Shown piece by piece: positions 938 through 32,231 of a stretch of 64,000 nucleotides of DNA (positions within the stretch are counted from its first letter, which is position 1; each line of letters starts with the position of its first letter). Under the pieces are notes generated by a model. That model did no database searches and was not told the origin of the DNA. It worked only from the letters and a program-made list of their open reading frames with translations. The position numbers and the translations under genes are program-made. The stretch lies in the NCBI RefSeq assembly GCF_053078305.1, contig NZ_CP166879.1; one strand, given 5' to 3'.

Positions 938-1840
938 TTAACCCTCCAGTGCTTTTTCAGCCAGGGTGATTACTTCAGCGAGATTTTCATCCGTTACTTC
1001 ACCAAGTTTCCTGGCTCCCTGTTTTTCCAGAATTGCAATAGCTTCTGCCCGGTAACCCCCTTTTGCTAACTGGAGGATCAACCCTTCAGCTTGTTTGCGT
1101 AGTGCCGCGAAATCAATTGTATGGTCATCTTTGGCGTCATTATTCTGGCTGGAATTTGCTGCGTCTCTGCGTGCAAATTCTTCCTGCAGCTGAAGGTACT
1201 CAACACGGTTGATCTCGATATGGCCTTTTTTAAGCATCTCGTTCAACTTGCGTAAGGTGTGGAGTTCACTGGCTGCTGTGCCGGATACATTTTTGACGTA
1301 AAACGGCCCCGTGCGTTCTCCATCTTTGTTACTGGCCTTTTTCGGCTTAACTTCATCACGCCCATCTGCAGGTGCATCAAGTAGTTGCTCGGCAAAAGCA
1401 CGTCGCTCGCCGATGGTTGGCAGGTCGTCCCAGAACTTAAGAATGTTACGGGACAGGTCCAGAAGAGCGGGTTTATGCAGTGCCCTGGCTCGTTTGACGC
1501 CCTGCAATGCGCTGTCGAGAGCATCAATCTGAACTACTCGTTTATCGCCTTCAGCATCACGGTAGGCAACAGCACGTTGCAGCATGTCTTCTGTGATAGG
1601 GGTGGCTACCGGGTAGAAACCAGCCAGTGCGATAACGTCGCTGAACTCCAGATCATCCAGTGTCATTGCCGCTGACATATTTTCAGTTTCAGTTGCTGTA
1701 TCCCGACATTCCTGCACTCGTGAAATCGTGTCAGGATGCATAACAATACCTGATGCCATTGTGCGGATAAGACGTTCAAGCAGCGCATTATGTTGTGCCA
1801 GAAGTTGATTATTAAGTTCGAGACTGGTTTCTAAACTCAT
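938..1840 (-). CDS. Hypothetical early-left phage protein, 300 aa (acidic, helical), function unknown
   Basis: A long ORF on the same strand as, and tightly packed with, the downstream nuclease gene. Its start ATG overlaps the stop of the upstream small ORF (ATGA). I recognise no motif. Confidence 0.6.
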
Positions 1841-2619: not shown

Positions 2620-3243
2620 CTAACGTTTACGGCGGTAAATACGGTGTTCGATCATTACACCTATGATCTGTAAGTTCATATCTGCACTACGAAAAATAGG
2701 GTAATCAGGATTTAGGGGGATTAATTCAAAGTCGTCGATGCCGATTCCTAATGGACGGTATTTTTTAAATGTAGCTTCGTGACCGTCGTTTTTGGCGACA
2801 ACAAACTCCCCTGGTGCAGGACATAGTTCAGGATCGATGATAACAATGTCTCCTTCTTTAAACTCTGGTTGCATGCTGTCGCCATCAATACGTAATGCGA
2901 AGCATGTTTCTGGAATGTCAGAGTCTGCCAAAATATATTCAAATTCCCCTGTCAGATCTGTTATGTCTCTTGCTTCTGTAAGCTCTCCTGCCTGAACGTA
3001 ACTTAATATAGGTATGCGTCTGGTACTTATCTCCGCGAGAGGCATAATATTTTTACCGTTCAGTAGCCAGTCTGGGCTACATTTCAAGGCCTTAGCCAGA
3101 TCCAGAAGATTGCGTGGCTTTCTGGTTCGTCCACTTTCGATGGATTCTATGGATTGTTGGCTAACCCCTGCAGAATTCGCTACTTCCACTTGAGTCATTC
3201 CTAATTCCAAACGACGTGCTTTAAAACGGGCTGCGAGAGACAT
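2620..3243 (-). CDS. CI-like prophage repressor (XRE-type HTH plus S24 LexA-like autopeptidase domain)
   Basis: The N-terminal HTH is MTQVEVANSAGVSQQSIESIESG. The C-terminal S24 signature is IDGDSMQPEF with a downstream FKKY lysine. I chose ATG 3243 (MSLAARF...) because AAGGA precedes it. The track start at 3294 adds 17 unlikely residues. The gene is divergent from a cro-like gene. Confidence 0.85.
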   Translation of the reverse strand: MSLAARFKARRLELGMTQVEVANSAGVSQQSIESIESGRTRKPRNLLDLAKALKCSPDWLLNGKNIMPLAEISTRRIPILSYVQAGELTEARDITDLTGEFEYILADSDIPETCFALRIDGDSMQPEFKEGDIVIIDPELCPAPGEFVVAKNDGHEATFKKYRPLGIGIDDFELIPLNPDYPIFRSADMNLQIIGVMIEHRIYRRKR

Positions 3244-3363
3244 GGGATTAGTCCTTCTGGGTTGTATTAATGTGTATACCCACATTAAAAACAATTTTTG
3301 TTGTATTTGACAAACCTCATTTGTTGTTGCTAAATACCACTAAAATTGTATGAGGTGAAAGCA
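3244..3363. promoter_or_regulatory. Immunity switch region: divergent promoters and candidate operators
   Basis: TTGACA (3307-3312), an 18-nt spacer and TAAATA (3331-3336) face cro. There is a 22-bp palindrome TTAATGTG-N6-CACATTAA at 3267-3288. GTTGTATT is repeated at 3261 and 3300. Confidence 0.5.
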
Positions 3364-6053: not shown

Positions 6054-6476
6054 ATGCGTAATATTCAACAGGTTTTAGAGCGCTGGGGTGGCTGGGCAGC
6101 GAGTGAAGGTGGTAGCGTCTACTTTCCTCCTGTTGCAGCCGGGTTTAAGAATCTGCTACCCGCGACGCAGTCTGGAAGGCTGAAATGCAGTGACAATGAC
6201 GGTCTTATCATCAACTCCGCTATGAGCTGCCTGAAGAAAAAAGATCCGTATCTGTGCACGCTCCTTGAGTGGCATTACGTCCAGGCCATGCCCGTGCGGG
6301 CGATGGGTGAGAAGCTCGGCGTATCTCACACCCACGTTCTGAAGAGGCTTCAGGCGGCAGAGGGATTTATTGACGGTTGCTTAGCCATGCTGGATGTGGT
6401 GCTCGAAATGGATCAGTCGGTTCAGTCAAAGCCTCAGGCTATCAGGACTTTGCGTAGGAGCTGCTCGGCGGCATAA
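6054..6476 (+). CDS. Late-gene antiterminator Q (phage 21/82, QuuD-like type)
   Basis: MRNIQQVLERWGGWAA...AAGFKNLL...CSDNDGLIINSAMSCLKK...KRLQAAEGFIDGCLAMLDVVLEMD matches my memory of the lambdoid Q / QuuD family. It lies upstream of a terminated leader and the lysis genes. Confidence 0.75.
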   Translation: MRNIQQVLERWGGWAASEGGSVYFPPVAAGFKNLLPATQSGRLKCSDNDGLIINSAMSCLKKKDPYLCTLLEWHYVQAMPVRAMGEKLGVSHTHVLKRLQAAEGFIDGCLAMLDVVLEMDQSVQSKPQAIRTLRRSCSAA

Positions 6477-19829: not shown

Positions 19830-20017
19830 CGTTTAACAGCCTGCCGGACGGGCTGTCCTACCTTCTCAATCCGGTTGACGCCGGGTTAATTCCTTATACA
19901 GCACTTAAAGATGGCTCTGTCGATTTGTACGATATTGCTCTTTTGAATGACCATCTGGCGGTAAAAGCGGATAACCAGCGGCGCATTGAGAAATGGAGAG
20001 AGGATAATGAACGCTGA
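19778..20017 (+). CDS. T-like extension of the chaperone, reached only by a -1 frameshift (fusion about 213 aa)
   Basis: The -1 frame has no start codon of its own but encodes 79 sensible residues (...LTFNSLPDGLSYLLNPVDAGLIPYTALKDGSVDLYDIALLNDHLAVKADNQRRIEKWREDNER). It ends 11 nt into the tape-measure gene. Confidence 0.55.
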   Translation, partial: FFAYTPYQHDAEPATGLTFNSLPDGLSYLLNPVDAGLIPYTALKDGSVDLYDIALLNDHLAVKADNQRRIEKWREDNER

Positions 20018-21995
20018 AACTATTAAAGATTTCCTCGTCTCGCTTGGCTTCAGTGTGGATGATGCAGGAGCGAAAAAGTTCGGTTCTGTCCTCGCCGGTA
20101 CAACTGCAAATGTCATCAAAATGGGGCTGGCCGTTGAAGGAGCCGCGCTGTCCGTGGTGGCCTTCACGGCTAAGATCGCCTCCGGTCTGGATAATCTTTA
20201 CTGGGCGTCACAGCGCACTGGAGCGACAGTCCAGGGAATTCAGTCTATTGGCTATGCGGTTTCGCAGGTTGGCGGCAGCGTGGACGCTGCGCGATCTTCT
20301 CTGGAAAGCCTCTCCCGGTTTATTCGTAATAATCCCGGTGCAGAGGGATTTCTGAATCGCCTGGGGGTACAGACACGGGATGCCAGCGGTAACATGCGTG
20401 ACATGGCCGCTATTTTTACAGGTGTAGGCCAGAAGCTCAGCGGCATGCCGTATTACCGGGCTAACCAGTATGCGCAGATGCTGGGCATTGACGAAAATAC
20501 CCTTATGGCGATGCGTCGGGGTGTGGGTGGTTTCTCCGGGCAGTACAGCGCAATGGCGAAAGCTATCGGCTTCAATGCTGACGAGGCGGCCAGAAGCTCC
20601 AACAAATTTATGACCTCCCTGCGTGAGTTTAGCGCGATGGCAGGCATGGCCCGTGACAAAATCGGCTCTAATCTTGCGGGTGGACTTGCGGGGTCGCTGG
20701 ACACCCTGCGCCGCCATATCCTGGACAACTTCCCGCGCATCGAGCAGACTCTGACGAAAGCCATAAAAGGCATTCTGGCGCTCGGGGATATTATCGGGCG
20801 GCTGTTCTTCAGACTGATTGAGGGGACATCAGGCCTTATCACCTGGTGGCAATCGCTGGATAAGCAAACGCGGGAGTTGATCTCGCTGTTTGGCGCACTG
20901 ACGATTGCGCTGCGCATTCTGAACAGTACGTTCTGGATGTCGCCGATTGGCCTCATTACCGCGCTGGCGGCGGGGATTGCCCTCCTGTGGGAGGACTATC
21001 AGACCTGGAAGGAAGGCGGCGACAGCCTGATTGACTGGGGCAAGTGGAAACCGGAGGTCGATGCCGCGCTGAAGATGGTTCGTGACCTTAAAACAACCGT
21101 TAACGACCTGGTGAAAGCGCTGGCGAAACTGCTCAATATTGACCTCAAATCATGGTCCCTGAAGTGGGATTTCAGCAACTTCATCGACCAGATGGGCGAA
21201 TTCAGCAAAATGCTGAACATGATCGCCGACCTGCTCAACGCTATCAAAGATGGCCGCTGGGCTGATGCCGTCAGCATCGGCAAACAGATACTTAATCAGG
21301 GCAGCGAAAATCCGTCAGCGATGCCGATGGTTACAGACAGCGCTAACAGTACTGCCGACTGGATTAAAGAGCACTGGGGATTCGATCCCCGCAGCGTGGG
21401 CCGGACGGTACGCGGCTGGTTTGGTGATGATGAGCCGGAACAACATGCACAGGCTACGAAACGAGGAGAACGGAATAACAATCCGGGAAACCTTAATTTT
21501 GCTGGTCAGGCAGGGGCTTCTCTTGAACGCCCGGGCGGGCGATTTGCCAGATTTGAAACTGCCTTTGATGGATTACGGGCTCTTGCTCGTCAGTTAATGC
21601 TGTACGCCGGACGGGGAATAAACAGTGTGGAGAAAATTATCTCTACCTGGGCACCTGCGTCTGATAATAACAACACAACTGCGTATATCAGGGCTGTATC
21701 GCAACGACTGGGAGTGGATCCCCGGGCTGCCCTGAATATGAGCGATCCGCAAACCATGTCAGCATTGATGAGCAGCATTATCCAGCATGAAAATGGAAGA
21801 AATATCTATTCTCGAGAGCTGATTAATAAGGCTGCCGTGGCGGGAATTAGTGGCAAAATGACAGAGGTTAACCAGCAAAATACTTACCACATTTACGGTG
21901 GCGGAGATCCGCACGCTGTCGGTAATGAGGTTGCACGTCGGCAACAGTCTGCAAATGCTCAGGTCATGCGAAGTAATCAGGTGAGGGTGGGTTAG
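20007..21995 (+). CDS. Tail tape measure protein
   Basis: 662 aa, helical and Ala/Gly/Leu-rich, with hydrophobic segments. I chose ATG 20007 (MNAETIKDF...) because GGAGAGAGG precedes it. Confidence 0.8.
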   Translation: MNAETIKDFLVSLGFSVDDAGAKKFGSVLAGTTANVIKMGLAVEGAALSVVAFTAKIASGLDNLYWASQRTGATVQGIQSIGYAVSQVGGSVDAARSSLESLSRFIRNNPGAEGFLNRLGVQTRDASGNMRDMAAIFTGVGQKLSGMPYYRANQYAQMLGIDENTLMAMRRGVGGFSGQYSAMAKAIGFNADEAARSSNKFMTSLREFSAMAGMARDKIGSNLAGGLAGSLDTLRRHILDNFPRIEQTLTKAIKGILALGDIIGRLFFRLIEGTSGLITWWQSLDKQTRELISLFGALTIALRILNSTFWMSPIGLITALAAGIALLWEDYQTWKEGGDSLIDWGKWKPEVDAALKMVRDLKTTVNDLVKALAKLLNIDLKSWSLKWDFSNFIDQMGEFSKMLNMIADLLNAIKDGRWADAVSIGKQILNQGSENPSAMPMVTDSANSTADWIKEHWGFDPRSVGRTVRGWFGDDEPEQHAQATKRGERNNNPGNLNFAGQAGASLERPGGRFARFETAFDGLRALARQLMLYAGRGINSVEKIISTWAPASDNNNTTAYIRAVSQRLGVDPRAALNMSDPQTMSALMSSIIQHENGRNIYSRELINKAAVAGISGKMTEVNQQNTYHIYGGGDPHAVGNEVARRQQSANAQVMRSNQVRVG

Positions 21996-22886: not shown

Positions 22887-23951
22887 ATGTCACAGAACTG
22901 GATGAGACATTTCGAGCTGCAGCTTGTGGACGGGAACGGTCAGGGAATTGAGCTAAGTGATTTCAAAGTCACCTTTACGATCGACTGGTTCAACATCAGC
23001 AGCGCGTCCCGGGTAGGGACTATCAAAATTTATAACCTCTCGGCAGATACTGTGAACCGAATTACCGGGCAGGAGTTTTCGAAAGTGCGTCTGATTGCCG
23101 GTTACGACGGTATCGCGCCGGAGGTGTCAGCAAGCGACGTAGGGACCGTGCGGGGAGTTGACGCGGCGGACGTGGGCCAGAGAGATGGCCGCAACTACGG
23201 ACTGATTTTCAGCGGTGAAATTCGCTACTCGGTCACAGGAAAAGACAGTCCGGTTGATACCTACGTCCTGATTCAGGCAGCAGATACTGATCTGGCTTTT
23301 GCCACCAGTATAACCTCACAGACGCTGGCTGCCGGTTACACGGTCGCTGATGTGAACCGTGCGCTGATGAAAGACTTCGAAGCCAAAGGCGCGACCGAAG
23401 GCCTGACGCCTGAAATGCCTGCTACTGTATTCCCCCGGGGGCGGGTACTCTTTGGCATGACGCGGCATCTAATGGATAACGTAGCCGGACAATGTGGCGC
23501 AACATGGCAATTCGTGGACGGTCAGCGCCAGATGGTGGCGAATAACGAATATGTTCACGAAGCGATTGTGCTCAACAGCGCTACCGGGCTTATTGGCATG
23601 CCGCAGCAGACTATCGGTAACGGCGTAAACGTCCGCGCGCTTATTAATCCGAACATCCGGGTTAACGGGCTCATTCAGCTGGATCAGGCTTCCGTCTATC
23701 GTACCGCGTTGTCGAACAACGATATTGCGATGGCTGGTGGTCAGATCACCGACCAGAACACGGACGGAAATATCACGCTCAGCGGCACCACATCGCAGCC
23801 TGCCTGCATCGCAACGGATGGCGTTTATATTGTGCGCGGGATTATGTACACTGGCGACACAAGGGGCCAGGCGTGGTACATGGATATGATGTGTGAAGCG
23901 CGTGGCGCGGCGGATCTTGTTTCCTCATCAGCGAGGGAAAGAGGGCTTTAA
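22887..23951 (+). CDS. Baseplate hub protein (Mu gp44 / P2 gpD-like position)
   Basis: 354 aa. It lies after the tape-measure-proximal genes and before the spike gene. Confidence 0.55.
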   Translation: MSQNWMRHFELQLVDGNGQGIELSDFKVTFTIDWFNISSASRVGTIKIYNLSADTVNRITGQEFSKVRLIAGYDGIAPEVSASDVGTVRGVDAADVGQRDGRNYGLIFSGEIRYSVTGKDSPVDTYVLIQAADTDLAFATSITSQTLAAGYTVADVNRALMKDFEAKGATEGLTPEMPATVFPRGRVLFGMTRHLMDNVAGQCGATWQFVDGQRQMVANNEYVHEAIVLNSATGLIGMPQQTIGNGVNVRALINPNIRVNGLIQLDQASVYRTALSNNDIAMAGGQITDQNTDGNITLSGTTSQPACIATDGVYIVRGIMYTGDTRGQAWYMDMMCEARGAADLVSSSARERGL

Positions 23952-24286
23952 TGAAACGGTTATGTTTGGCGTTAGTTATGATGGTTACTGCTCCGGCGAT
24001 GGCTGCAATTCAGTGCGGCAACTACACGATGACCGGTGACGGAATGACTGTTATTAACGGTGAAACTGTCACATCACAGAAGATAAAATTTCTGGGAAAA
24101 GATGGTGACTATTCAAACATGAAAATGGACATGGGCCTGATGCCTTCCCGTGATGGTAACAATTACGGCTTTGAGTTTGTGAAACGTAACGGAAAAGCTT
24201 TCCTGAACGTCCAGCTGCTGCAGAACAGCATGGACGCGCCGAAAATCATTGGATCTTTCCCGTGTAAAAAAGTGAGCAGCAAGTGA
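23951..24286 (+). CDS. Secreted small protein, 111 aa (cargo gene, function unknown)
   Basis: Sec signal peptide MKRLCLALVMMVTAPAMA|A. The mature part is beta-rich with two Cys. GC is lower than in the flanking genes. It is inserted between the hub and spike genes. Confidence 0.6.
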   Translation: MKRLCLALVMMVTAPAMAAIQCGNYTMTGDGMTVINGETVTSQKIKFLGKDGDYSNMKMDMGLMPSRDGNNYGFEFVKRNGKAFLNVQLLQNSMDAPKIIGSFPCKKVSSK

Positions 24287-24795
24287 CAGTTGATGATGAT
24301 CCTTTGAATTCATTTCAAGACCCTGACTTTCAGGAACTTCTCGGCGGAATTGATATTACTCTTGTTATAAGGTTTTTTAATTATTTTTCGCGTTTCGAAT
24401 ATGCGTTAAAAAGAATTAATTTCAAAAAAACTGATCGTAGAAATTATCTAATCGGTGCTGACTGGAGCCGCTACGCTACTGATGATACGCGGCCTTTATA
24501 TCCTACTGGAAATAGAAATGTCGATAGGGCAGTTGAGTATCTATGTCAGCAACCTGTGAAGCAGCAGAGGCATGATTTTTCGTGGGAGGATAAACCTCCA
24601 ATCGAACCTCATTCTCTTGCTGAAGCATTAAAGCAGATCCCGTATATAAGAAATAATCTCTTTCACGGCGGGAAGTATTTACGTCCCGACCCCGTTCGTG
24701 ATGAAAAGTTATTGAAATACTCTATTTATTTGATGCAGTTGTGTTTGATAACTGATAATCAGCTTTCTGAATACTTTAATACTATCCACCGATAG
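24283..24795 (+). CDS. HEPN-motif protein, 170 aa (cargo gene; candidate RNase/abortive-infection effector)
   Basis: IPYIRNNLFHGGK contains R-N-x-x-x-H, the HEPN Rx4-6H signature. The gene is AT-rich (14 G+C in 24361-24420). It uses a GTG start overlapping the upstream stop, so the start is uncertain. A strong terminator follows. Confidence 0.5.
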   Translation: MTVDDDPLNSFQDPDFQELLGGIDITLVIRFFNYFSRFEYALKRINFKKTDRRNYLIGADWSRYATDDTRPLYPTGNRNVDRAVEYLCQQPVKQQRHDFSWEDKPPIEPHSLAEALKQIPYIRNNLFHGGKYLRPDPVRDEKLLKYSIYLMQLCLITDNQLSEYFNTIHR

Positions 24796-24813
24796 TCATT
24801 CTTCATGAGATAA

Positions 24814-24837
24814 AACCTGCCACCCGGCGGGTTTTTT
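24814..24837 (+). terminator. Rho-independent terminator closing the cargo insert inside the late operon
   Basis: AACCTGCC-ACCC-GGCGGGTT followed by TTTT. Confidence 0.75.
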
Positions 24838-24855
24838 GCTTTTTGGAGCCTAACA

Positions 24856-25608
24856 ATGGCAGTAACTGACCAGACCCGCAGTGGCGATCTTGCCGAAACA
24901 TTTAAATCTGAACGGGAAACAACAAAGAACCAGATCCGTGTCGCCTTGCCTGGCATTATTCAGTCATTCGATCCTGACGCGGTGACGGCGGTTGTGCAGC
25001 CAGCTATCCGGTCGGTTGAAAAGGATAACGACGGTAACCGCATTACCAAAAATTACCCATTGCTGGTGGATGTGCCAGTGGTATTCCCGCGCGGCGGAGG
25101 CTGTACGTTGACTTTTCCGGTAAAAGCTGGGGATGAGTGTCTTGTCGTTTTTGCCGATCGTTGTATTGATTTCTGGTGGCAGAGCGGCGGGATACAGGAG
25201 ACGGTTGATGACAGAATGCATGATTTATCGGATGCGTTTTGTATTGTCGGTCCCCAGTCGCAGGCAAGGAAGATTAGCGGTATTAATACCAGTGCCACAC
25301 AGTTGCGTAGTGACGACGGCAGCACCTATTTTGAGCTTAATCCTGATACCCGGAAAATTAAAATTGTCGCTCCGGGGGGGCTTGATGTGGTTGCCCCCCT
25401 GGCTGATTTTTCTGAGAAAGTAACCATTCATGGCCTGTTAACCTGGATGGGGGGCATGGTGGGGTCTGTTGTTTCTGGTGTGGCTTCAAAAATCACTGGT
25501 GCTGTTGAGTTTTTGGGTAGCGTGAAGGCTAACGGCAAGCCAATCGATGATACGCACACTCATGGTGGTGTTCAGCGCGGTGGAAGCAATACCGACGGAG
25601 TAAACTGA
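24856..25608 (+). CDS. Baseplate central spike (Mu gp45 / gp138-N / gpV-like)
   Basis: IRVALPGIIQSFDPD...PLLVDVPVVFP...GDECLVVFADRCID is typical of spike OB-fold N-domains (from memory). Confidence 0.65.
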   Translation: MAVTDQTRSGDLAETFKSERETTKNQIRVALPGIIQSFDPDAVTAVVQPAIRSVEKDNDGNRITKNYPLLVDVPVVFPRGGGCTLTFPVKAGDECLVVFADRCIDFWWQSGGIQETVDDRMHDLSDAFCIVGPQSQARKISGINTSATQLRSDDGSTYFELNPDTRKIKIVAPGGLDVVAPLADFSEKVTIHGLLTWMGGMVGSVVSGVASKITGAVEFLGSVKANGKPIDDTHTHGGVQRGGSNTDGVN

Positions 25609-27837: not shown

Positions 27838-28292
27838 TGGCGAAAAATGACTTTAAAGCGTTTGCAACGGATCGAAATGCCAATGTTATATCGCAGGAGG
27901 AATGGGAAGCGTTGCCCGCGCTTTTATCCGGATTTACAGCAGGGAAAGCCTCCAGTGCGCAAGTCAATAAGGTTATTCGGCAGGTCAGCTTTATTGCTGC
28001 AGCTCTGGCCCAGTTTGTAAGTGATAAAACGCAACGGGATGTGCTTGATAATGGTGATCTGCCCGGTTTTGTTGAATTGCTGGGATCGGGGTTTGCTGTT
28101 GAATACCTGAGCCGCAAGAATCCGTTTGGTGATATCAAATCGGATGGCACGGTGAAAACGGCTCTCGAAAACCTTGGTTTGGGAGAAGAGCACAGCGTTA
28201 AGCCGGGTTGTTTCTGCCTGCGTCAGCTTCCGCCCGGCCTGCAATTTCAGCTGAATCAGACTAATGGAAGCCATAGCCGCATCAATCAGTGA
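27837..28292 (+). CDS. Tail fibre, constant N-terminal part (Sc). In this orientation it is not joined to a receptor-binding domain.
   Basis: ATG 27837 overlaps the upstream stop (TGATG). The sequence is sensible up to ...KTALENLGLGE at the crossover site (28162-28187). It then reads antisense tfa DNA (EHSVKPGCFCLRQLPPGLQF...) to a stop at 28292. Confidence 0.65.
   Translation: MAKNDFKAFATDRNANVISQEEWEALPALLSGFTAGKASSAQVNKVIRQVSFIAAALAQFVSDKTQRDVLDNGDLPGFVELLGSGFAVEYLSRKNPFGDIKSDGTVKTALENLGLGEEHSVKPGCFCLRQLPPGLQFQLNQTNGSHSRINQ
28162..28187. repeat. Invertase crossover site, left (hix/gix/pix-like, 26 bp)
   Basis: CTCTCGAAAACC-TT-GGTTTGGGAGAA. Its reverse complement shares TTCTCCCAAACCAA with the right site. 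It resembles hix TTCTTGAAAACCAAGGTTTTTGATAA. Confidence 0.7.
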
Positions 28293-28715
28293 CTGGCGCC
28301 GTACTTCTGCCGCGTCTACTGCGGCGTTATGCTGTGCCTCAGTGTCGGTCACCCATTTCTCACCATCCCATTTATCGTATGACGTTAACGGGGCGATAGT
28401 GGTTGTATTTTCAGGGTAATCACCCGGAACTGTGATTTCTTTTGATTCTCCTGTTTCGGTGCTATAGACGATTTCACCGCGATGGTCTGGCACATATTCC
28501 CATGAGTTAAAATCTGCAGAACGGCAAATTGCATAACCAGCTTTATATGAGCCAGGAGCATCTAAACAGGAACATGCCGGGATACCGACACCCACAGCAA
28601 GATATTCAGTTGATGTGGAAATATATTCCCGTGTTTCACCATCATAATTATAAACGGTAATGTCTCCGGCCTTTGTGGCGATGAGTTCATTATTTAATAC
28701 AGCTTTACTTATCAT
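28188..28715 (-). CDS. Tail fibre assembly protein (Tfa/U-like), native C-terminus missing
   Basis: MISKAVLNNELIATKAGDITVYNYDGE...KLTQAETTRLNAVL is Tfa-like. The usual last ~25 residues (xYxxxVxxVDxSxAPDIxWP) are absent. The ORF instead runs through the crossover site into antisense fibre DNA down to 27924. Confidence 0.6.
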
Positions 28716-29183
28716 GCAGCCCTCACAATATAATTAAAGGCGATGTTACGGGAGCGGGTTTCAGATGCTGTGCGAACTGAGCGAGATGCGTCGAATGTCC
28801 AGTTATAAGCGCCATAACCCTCAATAATTTCGGCTTCCTTTAGACCTGTAGATAATACTTGCCCATGTTGACTAAATGGCCCTGAACTAAGTACGTCTCT
28901 AAAAAGCTGGGTACGCCCAAAAGAACCAACAATATTCTGAATTGCATCATTCTGTGCAGATAATAAGTTACGACCAGAGTCAATCCCGCGCCCATCATCC
29001 CAGCCACGAATAAATTCACCGCGTAAATCTGGTAATTTTAATGTTGGGTAAGCCTTTGCCAGATTTGGGTACTTTTCAGAAGAAAATACTGCTCCGTTAC
29101 ATTTTAGCCACCCCATTGGCGGAGTGGCTGAAGGCCACGGAACAGGCACACCAACCGGTAATGCAGAGCCTTCTCCCAAACCA
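28712..29183 (-). CDS. Tail fibre variable C-terminal cassette (tail-collar, receptor-binding), with no start of its own
   Basis: GLGEGSALPVGVPVPWPSATPPMGWLKCNGAVFSSEKYPNLAKAYP...LPDLRGEFIRGWDDGRG is the phage tail-collar motif. It begins inside the right crossover site in the same GLGE frame as Sc, so inversion would fuse it to Sc. Confidence 0.7.
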
Positions 29184-29196
29184 ACGTTTATGAAAA
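29171..29196. repeat. Invertase crossover site, right (26 bp), inverted relative to the left site
   Basis: TTCTCCCAAACC-AA-CGTTTATGAAAA. Confidence 0.7.
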
Positions 29197-29250
29197 TGCA
29201 GAAATAACGAGCAAATGGCATCATTCCTGCTTTTGTCAGGGAGATCTACC

Positions 29251-29805
29251 ATGCTTATTGGCTATGTACGCGTATCAACAAATGACCAGAATACCGATCT
29301 ACAACGTAATGCGTTGAACTGTGCAGGATGCGAGCTGATTTTTGAAGACAAGATAAGCGGTACAAAGTCCGAAAGGCCGGGACTGAAAAAACTGCTCAGG
29401 ACATTATCGGCAGGTGACACTCTGGTTGTCTGGAAGCTGGATCGGCTGGGGCGTAGTATGCGGCATCTGGTCATTCTGGTTGAGGAGTTGCGCGAACGTG
29501 GCGTTAATTTTCGCAGCCTGACGGATGCTATTGATACCAGCACACCGATGGGGCGTTTTTTCTTTCATGTGATGGGGGCCCTGGCTGAAATGGAACGAGA
29601 ACTGATTGTTGAACGAACAAAAGCTGGACTGGAAGCTGCTCGCGCACAGGGACGAATTGGTGGACGTCGTCCCAAACTTACACCAGAACAATGGGCGCAG
29701 GCCGGGCGACTAATTGCATCAGGAGTTCCTCGCCAGAAGGTGGCGATCATTTATGATGTTGGCGTATCGACTTTGTATAAGAAGTTTCCGGTCGGAGATA
29801 AATGA
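29251..29805 (+). CDS. Serine DNA invertase (Gin/Pin/Cin/Hin family)
   Basis: The sequence MLIGYVRVSTNDQNTDLQRNAL...GRRPKL... ending in a C-terminal HTH matches the family, including the catalytic Ser in YVRVSTNDQ. GGGAG lies upstream of ATG 29251. Confidence 0.9.
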   Translation: MLIGYVRVSTNDQNTDLQRNALNCAGCELIFEDKISGTKSERPGLKKLLRTLSAGDTLVVWKLDRLGRSMRHLVILVEELRERGVNFRSLTDAIDTSTPMGRFFFHVMGALAEMERELIVERTKAGLEAARAQGRIGGRRPKLTPEQWAQAGRLIASGVPRQKVAIIYDVGVSTLYKKFPVGDK

Positions 29806-29885: not shown

Positions 29886-30533
29886 CTATGAAGCTAATTT
29901 GTTTAATTTCATTTGTAGTGACTTTACTTCTTGGTCGATAATGTCGAATCCCTTATTGACAGCATCTCTTAGCTCTGCATCAATATTTTTTATCCCTTGA
30001 GCATAATCTACCATTATATTTATTTTTGCATCATGTAATCTCTTATACATGGTTTTATTTTTGTTATTGTCTGCCATGCCAATAAGGATTTTTTCATAAT
30101 CCTCAATGAGTTTGTTGTTTCCTTTAAATGATTGTATTAATGAGCGTGAATATGTGTATATGTTAATTATTGAGTCTCTAGCAGAATCATTTAGTTTTGC
30201 AATGACATTCGCATTTTGCTCATAGAATGTGAAATTATCATCCCCTACAGGGAATGTGAGAATCAACATTTGTCCCGGTTTTATATTATCAATGTGTGTT
30301 TTCATCCTTTTATTATATAAATTGATTAGGGTGAAAACTTCTCCCTTAACTCCTTTTAATACTGAAAGTTGTAATTCAAGGGATTCTCTTTCTGTCTCTA
30401 CTTTAGACAGCTTAGCTTGTTGGGTAACTCCTTTTAGGGTAAACCATCCGCCAATAAGAGTACCAACTAGAGCTGTGAGGGAGGAGGATAACCATCCAGG
30501 TATGCTATTTAAAAGATTACTAAATTCACTCAT
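29886..30533 (-). CDS. Membrane-anchored coiled-coil protein, 215 aa (cargo, function unknown)
   Basis: N-terminal hydrophobic helix LSSSLTALVGTLIGGWFTL, then QQAKLSKVETERESLELQLSVLKG, then an Asn/Lys-rich C-terminal domain. Very low GC (14 G+C in 30001-30060). Confidence 0.6.
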   Translation of the reverse strand: MSEFSNLLNSIPGWLSSSLTALVGTLIGGWFTLKGVTQQAKLSKVETERESLELQLSVLKGVKGEVFTLINLYNKRMKTHIDNIKPGQMLILTFPVGDDNFTFYEQNANVIAKLNDSARDSIINIYTYSRSLIQSFKGNNKLIEDYEKILIGMADNNKNKTMYKRLHDAKINIMVDYAQGIKNIDAELRDAVNKGFDIIDQEVKSLQMKLNKLAS

Positions 30534-31174: not shown

Positions 31175-32023
31175 TCAGACCAGTTTTTTCACCAGCGCTT
31201 CACTATGACGAATACGTTCTGGTGCCAGTTCCAGATCCTGCTGAATCAGCGCAATGAACAGCAAATCCGTTAACATTCCCTGCGCGTGACAAGCAGAGAT
31301 TGAAGCACTGTTTGTCGCTTGTTCTTCGGCAATGGTATACAGGCAATGAGAAGCACGCTGTTGCAGGGCATTGGGAGTAAAGCCGGTAATCGCCAGCACT
31401 TTTCCGCCCACTCGCAGCATCTCATCTGCCGCCAGGTTTAACTCGCGTCGTACACCGGTGTAAGAAATGGCTAATAACAGATCGTCAGGGGACGACGCCT
31501 GTACGGTAGCGAGTAGCGCATGCATATCGCGCACTGCGGCAGCATTGAAGCCAATCTTCATCAGCTTCCAGGCAAAGTTTTGCGCCACCAGACCCGAAGC
31601 GCCAATACCGGTCAGAATTATCCGCCGCGCAGAGCGCAACATTGTTACGCATTCATGCAGTTTCTCTTCACTATTAACGTTTAGCGTTGCGTACATAGCG
31701 GCAGTATTTTCTTTAATCAGTTTTTCGCCGACCAGCCGTAACGGATCATCACCGCGGATTTGGTTATGAATGGGCACGGAGGGCGATTCCGGCTGGCTTG
31801 CCAGCGCTTCACTCAACGCCAACTTAAGCGCCGGAAAACCTTTATAGCCGAGTTTTTGCGCGAACTTCACGACGCTGGACTGACTGACTCCGGCTTCGTT
31901 GGCCAGTTGCTGAGAGCTTAAATGGCGCGCCGTATCAGGTTGTAGCAGCAGATAATCCGCCAGTTTTTTATCACTCTGGGCAAGCCCCTGGTAACGCTGA
32001 CGGATACGAAGTAAGCCGTTCAT
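31175..32023 (-). CDS. yfhH: RpiR/MurR-family transcriptional regulator (HTH plus SIS domain)
   Basis: 282 aa from MNGLLRIRQRYQGLAQSDKKLADYLL. This matches K-12 YfhH in size and synteny. The track start at 32095 is too long. Confidence 0.9.
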   Translation of the reverse strand: MNGLLRIRQRYQGLAQSDKKLADYLLLQPDTARHLSSQQLANEAGVSQSSVVKFAQKLGYKGFPALKLALSEALASQPESPSVPIHNQIRGDDPLRLVGEKLIKENTAAMYATLNVNSEEKLHECVTMLRSARRIILTGIGASGLVAQNFAWKLMKIGFNAAAVRDMHALLATVQASSPDDLLLAISYTGVRRELNLAADEMLRVGGKVLAITGFTPNALQQRASHCLYTIAEEQATNSASISACHAQGMLTDLLFIALIQQDLELAPERIRHSEALVKKLV

Positions 32024-32231
32024 ATCTTTCCTCGCGATGAAATAGTGGCGACAACAGGCAATATGAGACACACGCGAGTGAATTTTATATTCCATTGCCG
32101 CTAATTGCCATGAATTAAAAATTCCAGTTAGCCATGATGCGGTCGATTGTTGCCGGAAAAGTGATGATCTATCTGTTAGGCTATGTAGTAGCGAAAATTA
32201 ATCAGGATGTTTCAGTCCAGAGGAGTATGGT

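Follow-up and report, generated by a model that had tools for sequence, protein, structure and literature searches.

A large unnamed family of HEPN-like proteins represented in a variable cargo slot of SEN34/Brunovirus-like prophages

Two small open reading frames (ORFs) stand between the baseplate hub gene and the spike gene of a prophage in contig NZ_CP166879.1 (NCBI RefSeq assembly GCF_053078305.1), and they raise the question of whether they arrived together as one foreign unit and what such a unit could do for the phage or its host. We analysed a stretch of 64,000 nucleotides (the window), in which ORF1 and ORF2 fill the 0.9 kb between the two structural genes. The initial annotation, made from the sequence alone, had read them as a low-GC two-gene insert with its own terminator, pairing an envelope protein with a ribonuclease (RNase) of the HEPN superfamily in a defence or exclusion module. 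Comparison with relatives divides the locus differently: the mobile unit is ORF2 alone, and both ORF1 and the terminator belong to the phage backbone. The features concerned are the following (aa, amino acids).

22887-23951, plus strand: baseplate hub gene, the left backbone flank (phrog_196 baseplate hub, E = 3.9e-89; Pfam E217_GP41 below cutoff)
23951-24286, plus strand: ORF1, 111 aa, a secreted protein of the STY1065/STY2022 family (phrog_3443, E = 2.7e-53)
23951-24004, plus strand: predicted Sec signal peptide of ORF1, MKRLCLALVMMVTAPAMA, with cleavage after A-M-A (homologue alignment and AlphaFold2)
about 24274-24812, no strand: variable cargo cassette of the hub-spike slot, holding only ORF2 here (blastn breakpoints and junction alignments)
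24283-24795, plus strand: ORF2, 170 aa, of a solo HEPN-like protein family (phrog_19013), with a GTG start that overlaps the ORF1 stop (GTGA)
24812-24845, plus strand: intrinsic terminator with a 10-bp stem, an ACCC loop and a T-run, the conserved right border of the slot upstream of the spike gene (folding and relatives)
24856-25608, plus strand: membrane-puncturing spike gene, the right backbone flank (Pfam spike N-terminal domain, E = 5e-44, and Apex motif)

This temperate myovirus prophage belongs to the SEN34/Brunovirus type and shares 99.5-99.8% identity with prophages in Escherichia coli chromosomes and with the induced phages vB_EcoM-689R2, -606R2 and -611R5; its identity to vB_EcoM-683R1 is 99.0%. 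When positions 23400-25400 were compared by blastn with relatives that carry other genes in the slot, homology ran through the hub gene and ORF1, ended at 24270-24274, with three to five codons of ORF1 still to come, and returned at 24810-24856, mostly at 24810-24825, which is the terminator hairpin. Because homology breaks at the end of ORF1 and resumes at the hairpin, the mobile unit is about 24274-24812 and contains a single gene; the borders of the supposed two-gene insert had been drawn too wide on both sides. Base composition agrees with these borders, as the drop in G+C content and in G+C content at third codon positions (GC3) is strong only in ORF2: G+C content and GC3 are 0.547 and 0.617 in the hub gene, 0.452 and 0.545 in ORF1, 0.382 and 0.339 in ORF2, and 0.509 and 0.498 in the spike gene. 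The G+C counts first reported for this locus are exact (14 of 60 nucleotides in 24361-24420 and 33 of 60 in 23821-23880), and the sharp change in composition claimed for the whole insert is real for ORF2 but not for ORF1, which is intermediate and has a GC3 near the backbone value. A composition unlike that of the adjoining phage genes is also a trait of morons. An integron-like or transposon-like cassette was considered and rejected, a repeat search over 23400-25200 having found no flanking repeats, and an Rfam search over the same interval returned no RNA families.

The proposed terminator was confirmed (hairpin and T-run score as terminator-like and fold at -19.3 kcal/mol, z = -3.65 against shuffles), but it is not the insert's own. 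Relatives whose cargo is unrelated have the same hairpin before their spike genes (loci L001, L003, L018, L019, L020, L022 and L023), and it is found in most relatives whatever they carry. Among relatives it varies only in the loop and at one or two positions of the stem, and the ribosome-binding region of the spike gene is likewise the same.

The slot between these borders is hypervariable. Of 5426 complete E. coli genomes, about 351 have the backbone and only 24 have ORF2, so that more than 90% of the backbone-positive genomes lack it, and at least nine types of cargo lie between ORF1 and the spike gene among the relatives. The initial idea of a foreign gene carried as variable cargo within the tail operon is supported. 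Cargo other than ORF2 was as follows.

Locus L018: a 190-aa gene upstream of a YafO-family toxin gene, the YafO match being clear
Locus L019: DUF4282 protein
Locus L020: DUF2335 membrane protein
Locus L021: no annotated genes
Locus L022: TPR protein and a 140-aa protein with a weak HEPN_IX match
Locus L023: 184-aa protein with a weak PycTM match and a 56-aa ORF
Locus L001: 257-aa protein
Locus L002, Yersinia phage YP3: 266-aa protein
Locus L003, SEN34: 138-aa protein
Locus L034, Klebsiella phage Mulock: 148-aa protein
Locus L035, Klebsiella phage ST405-OXA48phi1.2: 222-aa gene on the opposite strand

Most of this alternative cargo is unannotated, family matches above threshold being limited to YafO, DUF2335 and DUF4282. 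Representatives of the slot occur in Escherichia, Salmonella, Klebsiella, Yersinia, Pantoea and Citrobacter. The position after ORF1 shows the pattern of a moron or cargo hotspot, closed by a conserved terminator before the spike gene. It resembles the defence hotspots of P2 and P4 prophages, where cargo is exchanged at a fixed position between conserved genes (PMC9122126), and the sites of classic morons, in that unrelated AT-rich toxin-like or defence-like genes replace one another among close relatives in a terminator-closed site. It differs from the P2/P4 hotspots in phage lineage (here SEN34/Brunovirus-like) and in position (ORF1 to spike), and the function of its cargo is predicted at most. 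We found no earlier description of a hub-spike cargo hotspot in the literature searched, and nothing relevant there on the families of ORF1 and ORF2.

In contrast to this cargo, ORF1 belongs to the constant backbone of the SEN34/Brunovirus-like temperate myoviruses found in Enterobacterales and lies outside the mobile cassette. We identified 410 homologues, in Enterobacterales, one of which, at the same position in a relative (WP_040063285.1), is named 'STY1065/STY2022 family phage-derived protein' by the Prokaryotic Genome Annotation Pipeline; the NCBIfam release searched holds no STY1065/STY2022 model, and scans of ORF1 against Pfam, NCBIfam and PADLOC gave nothing usable. In every relative examined an ORF1 homologue lies 3' of the hub gene, including those of Pantoea (37% identity) and Klebsiella (35-38%), the exception being a Salmonella remnant (L009) in which ORF1 is truncated to 77 aa and an intact hub gene is missing. 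Hub and spike genes, which had been taken to be normally adjacent, are not adjacent in any relative of this lineage that was examined, and the universal presence of ORF1 homologues between them argues against counting ORF1 as part of an insert. At the nucleotide level ORF1 is 97-99.7% identical to its counterparts in E. coli relatives with different cargo, right up to the cassette border.

The initial description of ORF1 as a protein with a signal peptide and two cysteines held. The N-terminal 18-25 residues of its homologues vary in sequence but keep their hydrophobicity, and in most of them end in a small-x-small motif (for example A-x-A); the AlphaFold2 model of ORF1 has a helix at residues 2-22 followed by an all-beta body, and C22 and C105 are invariant among homologues. 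Such features are compatible with export through the Sec pathway and with a disulfide bond in the mature protein. The small secreted exclusion proteins known from phages suggest, by analogy, that ORF1 might act in periplasmic exclusion or receptor masking. The tape-measure-like protein of the window (669 aa, 19986-21995) has relatives annotated 'lytic transglycosylase catalytic', and a Pfam SLT domain is found in the tape-measure-like proteins of loci L006, L026 and L028; should secreted ORF1 be an exclusion factor, such a lytic transglycosylase (SLT) tape measure is a possible target for it in the periplasm.

What, then, is ORF2? Its GTG start is the one annotated by RefSeq, and its homologues align from residue 1. 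The motif noted at the outset, IPYIRNNLFHGGK, was confirmed, with R123-N124-x3-H128-G129 at 24649-24669. Two stretches of the protein stand out in an alignment of 126 diverse members of its family.

24385-24399, plus strand: helix-1 motif F35-S-R-F-E39, with E39 invariant in the alignment; the FSRFE-type motif was found by regular expression in 103 of 148 family representatives
24649-24675, plus strand: R123-N-N-L-F-H128-G-G-K131, putative HEPN Rx4H catalytic motif (from the same alignment)

Along with E39, residues R123, H128 and G129 are invariant in the 126 sequences, N124, N125, L126, F127, G130, K131 and R139 are conserved in at least 90% of them, and RNxxxHG occurs in 147 of the 148 representatives. 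The family is large. A first search returned 30 relatives; a profile search of 1.84 billion representatives (50% clustering) returned 2413 at E <= 0.001, of which 1802 had E <= 1e-10; and a second, indexed search gave at least 6414 clusters (90% level), among which 'hypothetical' is the only name carried and no Pfam domain occurs. The family is thus unnamed in all sources examined. Nearly all members are stand-alone, probably helical proteins of 155-190 aa (about 165). A few form the C-terminal part of fusions with DUF6884, a YaaA-like nucleic-acid-binding domain (P0192, 332 aa; P0204, 650 aa); the Pfam curators connect DUF6884 with the DNA-binding fold of YaaA and with the recognition of abasic or RNA-base lesions.

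A conserved Rx4-6H motif, often in the form R-N/H/Q/D-x3-H, marks the HEPN superfamily, and the ORF2 family keeps Rx4H with asparagine after the arginine. The best profile match of the ORF2 family is to the HEPN domain (residues 306-444) of a Csx1/Csm6-type protein, Csx1-Crn2 from Marinitoga (PDB 8y7f), and related entries, in an alignment that sets RNNLFHGG of ORF2 on RNSVAHGG of Csx1-Crn2, so that R-N-x3-H-G-G falls on R401-N402-H406-G-G. Residues R401, N402 and H406 have been shown by structure to be catalytic (PMC11317161). This match reaches only E = 0.017 to 0.07, however, and in contrast to Csx1-Crn2 ORF2 has neither a CARF or HTH sensor domain nor a CRISPR context. Scans of individual family members gave further sub-threshold matches, in Pfam to HEPN_Apea (0.0075), Abi_2 (0.042) and HEPN_Swt1 (0.044) and in PADLOC to Cas13a (0.0033) and CARF_HEPN (0.0025); 10 of the 13 weakly matched PADLOC families bear HEPN domains (Cas13a, six CARF_HEPN, Cas13-ApeA and two Csx1). 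The closest solved small structures, also sub-threshold, are the HEPN toxins 7ae2, 8xdj and 5yep of toxin-antitoxin systems. A match of two members to HEC-05 was set aside and counted as non-HEPN, HEC-05 being BrxU (GmrSD-like).

Several results weigh against the assignment. The window ORF2 has no match in Pfam at E <= 1 or in NCBIfam and PADLOC at E <= 10, and no curated HEPN model is passed by the family. Alignment of the family profile by hhalign with single HEPN sequences (AbiV-type, HepT-type and HEPN_IX-like) was not significant, only the RxxxxHG stretch being aligned with HepT (E = 0.051), and Foldseek found no meaningful match of the ORF2 model in the PDB. What speaks for the HEPN prediction is the conserved Rx4H signature together with a set of weak matches that converge on one superfamily and make the idea plausible. 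ORF2 falls outside every named HEPN family; judged by its sequence, it very probably represents a divergent, undescribed branch of the superfamily.

The neighbourhoods of ORF2 homologues fall into two groups. Members of an enterobacterial clade (50-75% identity) always occupy this same slot, directly after an ORF1 homologue, at five other loci (L006, L009, L026, L028 and L029). The ORF2 start abuts or overlaps the ORF1 stop in the window and at four of these five (L009, L026, L028 and L029); in L006 the two are separated by 40 nucleotides. Among the distant homologues examined (30-38% identity), by contrast, none has an ORF1 neighbour and no neighbour is common to the loci, so that the co-occurrence of the two genes outside tail operons, which the neighbourhood survey had been proposed to reveal, was not observed. 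The settings of these distant homologues were as follows.

Locus L011: between an HEPN_AbiV gene and DUF4268, RNase_T, TIR_2 and type ISP restriction enzyme genes
Locus L014: an MNT/HepT pair nearby, a separate and complete pair
Locus L015: a TnpB-like gene nearby
Locus L016: after a 1257-aa nSTAND3 NTPase
Locus L007: after a pair of HTH and ImmA/IrrE-peptidase genes
Locus L031: a mobile element with integrase and Mu-type transposase
Locus L033: adjoining an integrase and a TIR protein
Locus L032: among housekeeping genes
Locus L030, Klebsiella phage ST101-KPC2phi6.1: tail-module cargo region of an unrelated siphophage

In L007 (5101-8270) and L008 the homologue is the third gene after XRE-type HTH and ImmA/IrrE (Peptidase_M78) genes and is followed by PnuC-like and NadR-like genes, a layout that hints at protease- or repressor-controlled expression and possibly at a link to NAD metabolism. 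The homologue in L030 (4971-5489, 30% identical) lies before the tape-measure gene, among small unannotated genes and an HTH gene on the opposite strand, and is a second tail-operon placement of the family. The ORF2 family is distributed like an accessory gene that is sufficient in itself, and its surroundings are often related to defence or mobility. The defence idea of the initial annotation gains from these contexts, even as the two-gene form in which it was cast does not.

Two described prophage systems offer the closest analogies for what ORF2 may do. HepS, encoded by the Salmonella prophage Gifsy-1, is a solo HEPN abortive-infection protein that works without a partner and is inactive by default; it is constitutively expressed, tetrameric and triggered by the tail-tip protein J, cleaves transfer RNA (tRNA) anticodon loops, and is without toxicity when overexpressed alone (PMC13043305). 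In contrast to HepS, ORF2 lies inside a myovirus baseplate operon. A HepS-like chain was not returned by ORF2 profile searches of PDB sequences at E <= 10, though it is uncertain whether a HepS structure is present in that set. The LT2 Gifsy-1 record has no gene with the R100-x4-H105 motif of HepS (STM14_3211), and HepS appears to be specific to strain 14028. Tha is a tail-activated HEPN system of Staphylococcus aureus prophages, controlled by ith, a small overlapping antisense gene at the lysogeny module (PMC11087260). Tha is, as ORF2 would be, a prophage-encoded single HEPN effector and faces the problem of self-targeting during the prophage's own late gene expression; unlike Tha, ORF2 has no conserved antisense gene that we could find, and the two differ in host phylum and sequence family.

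By analogy with HepS and Tha, we regard it as fairly probable that ORF2 is a solo HEPN-type latent RNase carried as a moron. Such a protein would be a latent ribonuclease comparable to HepS, Tha, ApeA and AbiV; it would oligomerise and thereby join two Rx4H motifs in a single active site, stay inactive by default with no need of an antitoxin, and be switched on by a cue from an infecting phage, whereupon it would cleave tRNA or other RNA, abort the infection and protect the lysogen population. For ORF2, RNase activity, oligomerisation and latency are inferred from that comparison, and so are its trigger, its defence phenotype and its expression by the lysogen. In the lysogen, the terminator would keep transcription initiated in the slot away from the baseplate genes, and in lytic growth a Q-modified polymerase would read through it. 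A candidate for this role is present in the prophage:

6054-6476, plus strand: Q-family antiterminator gene of the same prophage (from the ORF listing; annotated 'antiterminator Q family protein' in the near-identical prophage of E. coli 14EC029)

Its presence makes read-through of the internal terminator in lytic growth plausible.

The arrangement of the genes is harder to reconcile with a gene expressed in the lysogen. Upstream of ORF2 there is neither intergenic space nor a good promoter match; the ORF2 start overlaps the ORF1 stop, and the ORF1 start in turn overlaps the TAA stop of the hub gene (TAATG in the junction sequence). The sole promoter-like site upstream in the ORF1/ORF2 region is a 9-of-12 match inside ORF1 (24060-24089), and the total of four promoter-like matches compares with 2.6 +/- 1.5 expected in shuffled sequence. 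The placement of the L032 homologue among housekeeping genes likewise speaks against the defence reading. The lack of room for a promoter and an apparent translational coupling to the two preceding genes suggest that ORF2 may be produced chiefly at the late stage, alongside the tail proteins, and not in the lysogen. On the minus strand at 24380-24425, in the AT-rich 5' part of ORF2, two sigma-70-like matches overlap each other and point towards a 66-aa antisense ORF across the junction of ORF1 and ORF2; they are probably chance matches in AT-rich DNA, since the number of matches does not exceed the shuffled expectation. That antisense ORF (24113-24313, minus strand) was examined as a possible inhibitor and rejected, as it lies mostly over conserved ORF1 and nothing in it is specific to ORF2-type loci.

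Possible late production keeps alive an account in which ORF2 is an RNase serving the phage's own lytic cycle, made together with the tail genes, and not a defence expressed by the lysogen; its role could be host shut-off, exclusion of superinfecting phages during lysis, or degradation of a host defence RNA or signal. The tight coupling of ORF2, ORF1 and the hub gene just described, the preservation of this junction in the diverged enterobacterial clade and the distant homologue inside the tail module of another phage all speak for it. We nevertheless think it rather unlikely: most of the family consists of solo genes in bacterial or archaeal chromosomes, with known defence genes next to several of them, the scarcity of ORF2 among related E. 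coli prophages (24 of about 351) means that the phage cycle does not need it, and a terminator directly after ORF2 fits the layout of a moron.

A further account would make ORF2 the toxin of an addiction or toxin-antitoxin module that mainly stabilises the prophage. The unrecognised antitoxin could then be an antisense product (a small RNA or ORF) or a protein from another part of the prophage. HEPN toxins of type II and type VII systems as the closest solved small structures (7ae2, 8xdj, 5yep) are in keeping with this, as are the YafO toxin in the same slot of other strains, the two minus-strand promoter-like sites in the 5' region of ORF2 and the precedent of Tha, whose inhibitor is encoded antisense (PMC11087260). 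Yet an MNT or other partner was present at none of the 14 homologue loci examined, which have no neighbour in common, the Rfam search was empty, and the promoter-like matches do not exceed the shuffled expectation. HEPN/MNT (HepT/MntA) systems have their MNT antitoxin gene adjacent, whereas 23951-24855 contains no NTP_transf_2 or Polbeta-type ORF, in agreement with the early observation that no MNT-type or other antitoxin-like ORF is present at the locus. On balance this account seems improbable.

To the same low degree we would credit the view that ORF2 is not a nuclease at all, its helical domain using the R/H motif to bind a nucleotide or protein ligand in the manner of a non-catalytic HEPN protein, or having some other fold. 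All structural and profile links to HEPN are indeed sub-threshold, and two members weakly match the BrxU/HEC-05 model. On the other side, a motif whose R, N, H and G are invariant or nearly so across thousands of clusters is the usual mark of catalysis, its residues align one to one with those of an experimentally proven catalytic site, and the DUF6884 fusions point to a nucleic-acid substrate.

The weakest proposal, in which periplasmic ORF1 and cytoplasmic ORF2 were acquired as a 0.9-kb insert and form one two-component defence or exclusion system, can appeal to the adjacency and overlapping codons of the two genes and to the ORF1 homologue that precedes ORF2 in every enterobacterial-clade locus examined, but it is largely refuted by gene distribution and thus very improbable, as ORF1 occurs in all relatives regardless of cargo, accompanying at least nine other kinds of it, with its near-backbone GC3, more than 90% of the backbone-positive E. 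coli genomes lack ORF2, and none of eight distant ORF2 loci has an ORF1-like neighbour.

Elsewhere in the prophage, 27924-29805 resembles an invertible tail-fibre segment. A serine recombinase/invertase gene (Resolvase and HTH_7; 29215-29805, plus strand) adjoins two minus-strand ORFs, one for a fibre fragment with a tail-collar domain (28712-29224) and one for a tail-fibre assembly protein (27924-28715), which lie opposite plus-strand fibre genes; this arrangement suggests host-range switching of the Gin/Cin type. A 215-aa ORF without a Pfam match (29886-30533, minus strand), located at the right prophage end and shortly before a host yfhH/murR-like gene (31175-32095), may be a further cargo gene; different hypothetical genes occupy this position in the near-identical prophage of 14EC029. 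In the lysogeny-side region, a 300-aa ORF that also lacks a Pfam match (938-1840, minus strand) lies upstream of a LexA-like repressor gene (HTH_3 and Peptidase_S24, 2620-3294).

Whatever ORF2 does, the ORF1-to-spike slot is a well-defined cargo site with sharp borders and a conserved terminator, and its contents could be mined for new defence or toxin genes, as those of the P2/P4 hotspots were. If ORF2 is an active solo HEPN defence protein, a large unnamed family would gain a function, and prophage-encoded, latent, partner-less RNases would have a third, unrelated example beside HepS and Tha. The location of this one in the baseplate operon of its own prophage, seemingly coupled to late expression, would then raise the question of how the prophage escapes its own effector at induction. 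More tentatively still, the family may be a new and very widespread group of HEPN immune effectors that act without a partner, comprising at least 2400 clusters (50% level) in many bacterial phyla and having a trigger and an RNA target of its own, and the gap between ORF1 and the spike gene of SEN34/Brunovirus-like prophages an undescribed defence hotspot across Enterobacterales. It is a speculative extension of this idea that conserved ORF1 acts as a periplasmic exclusion factor against the incoming tail tip, so that the slot would concentrate anti-phage functions. The value of the finding would lie in a new family and a new hotspot and not in a new principle.

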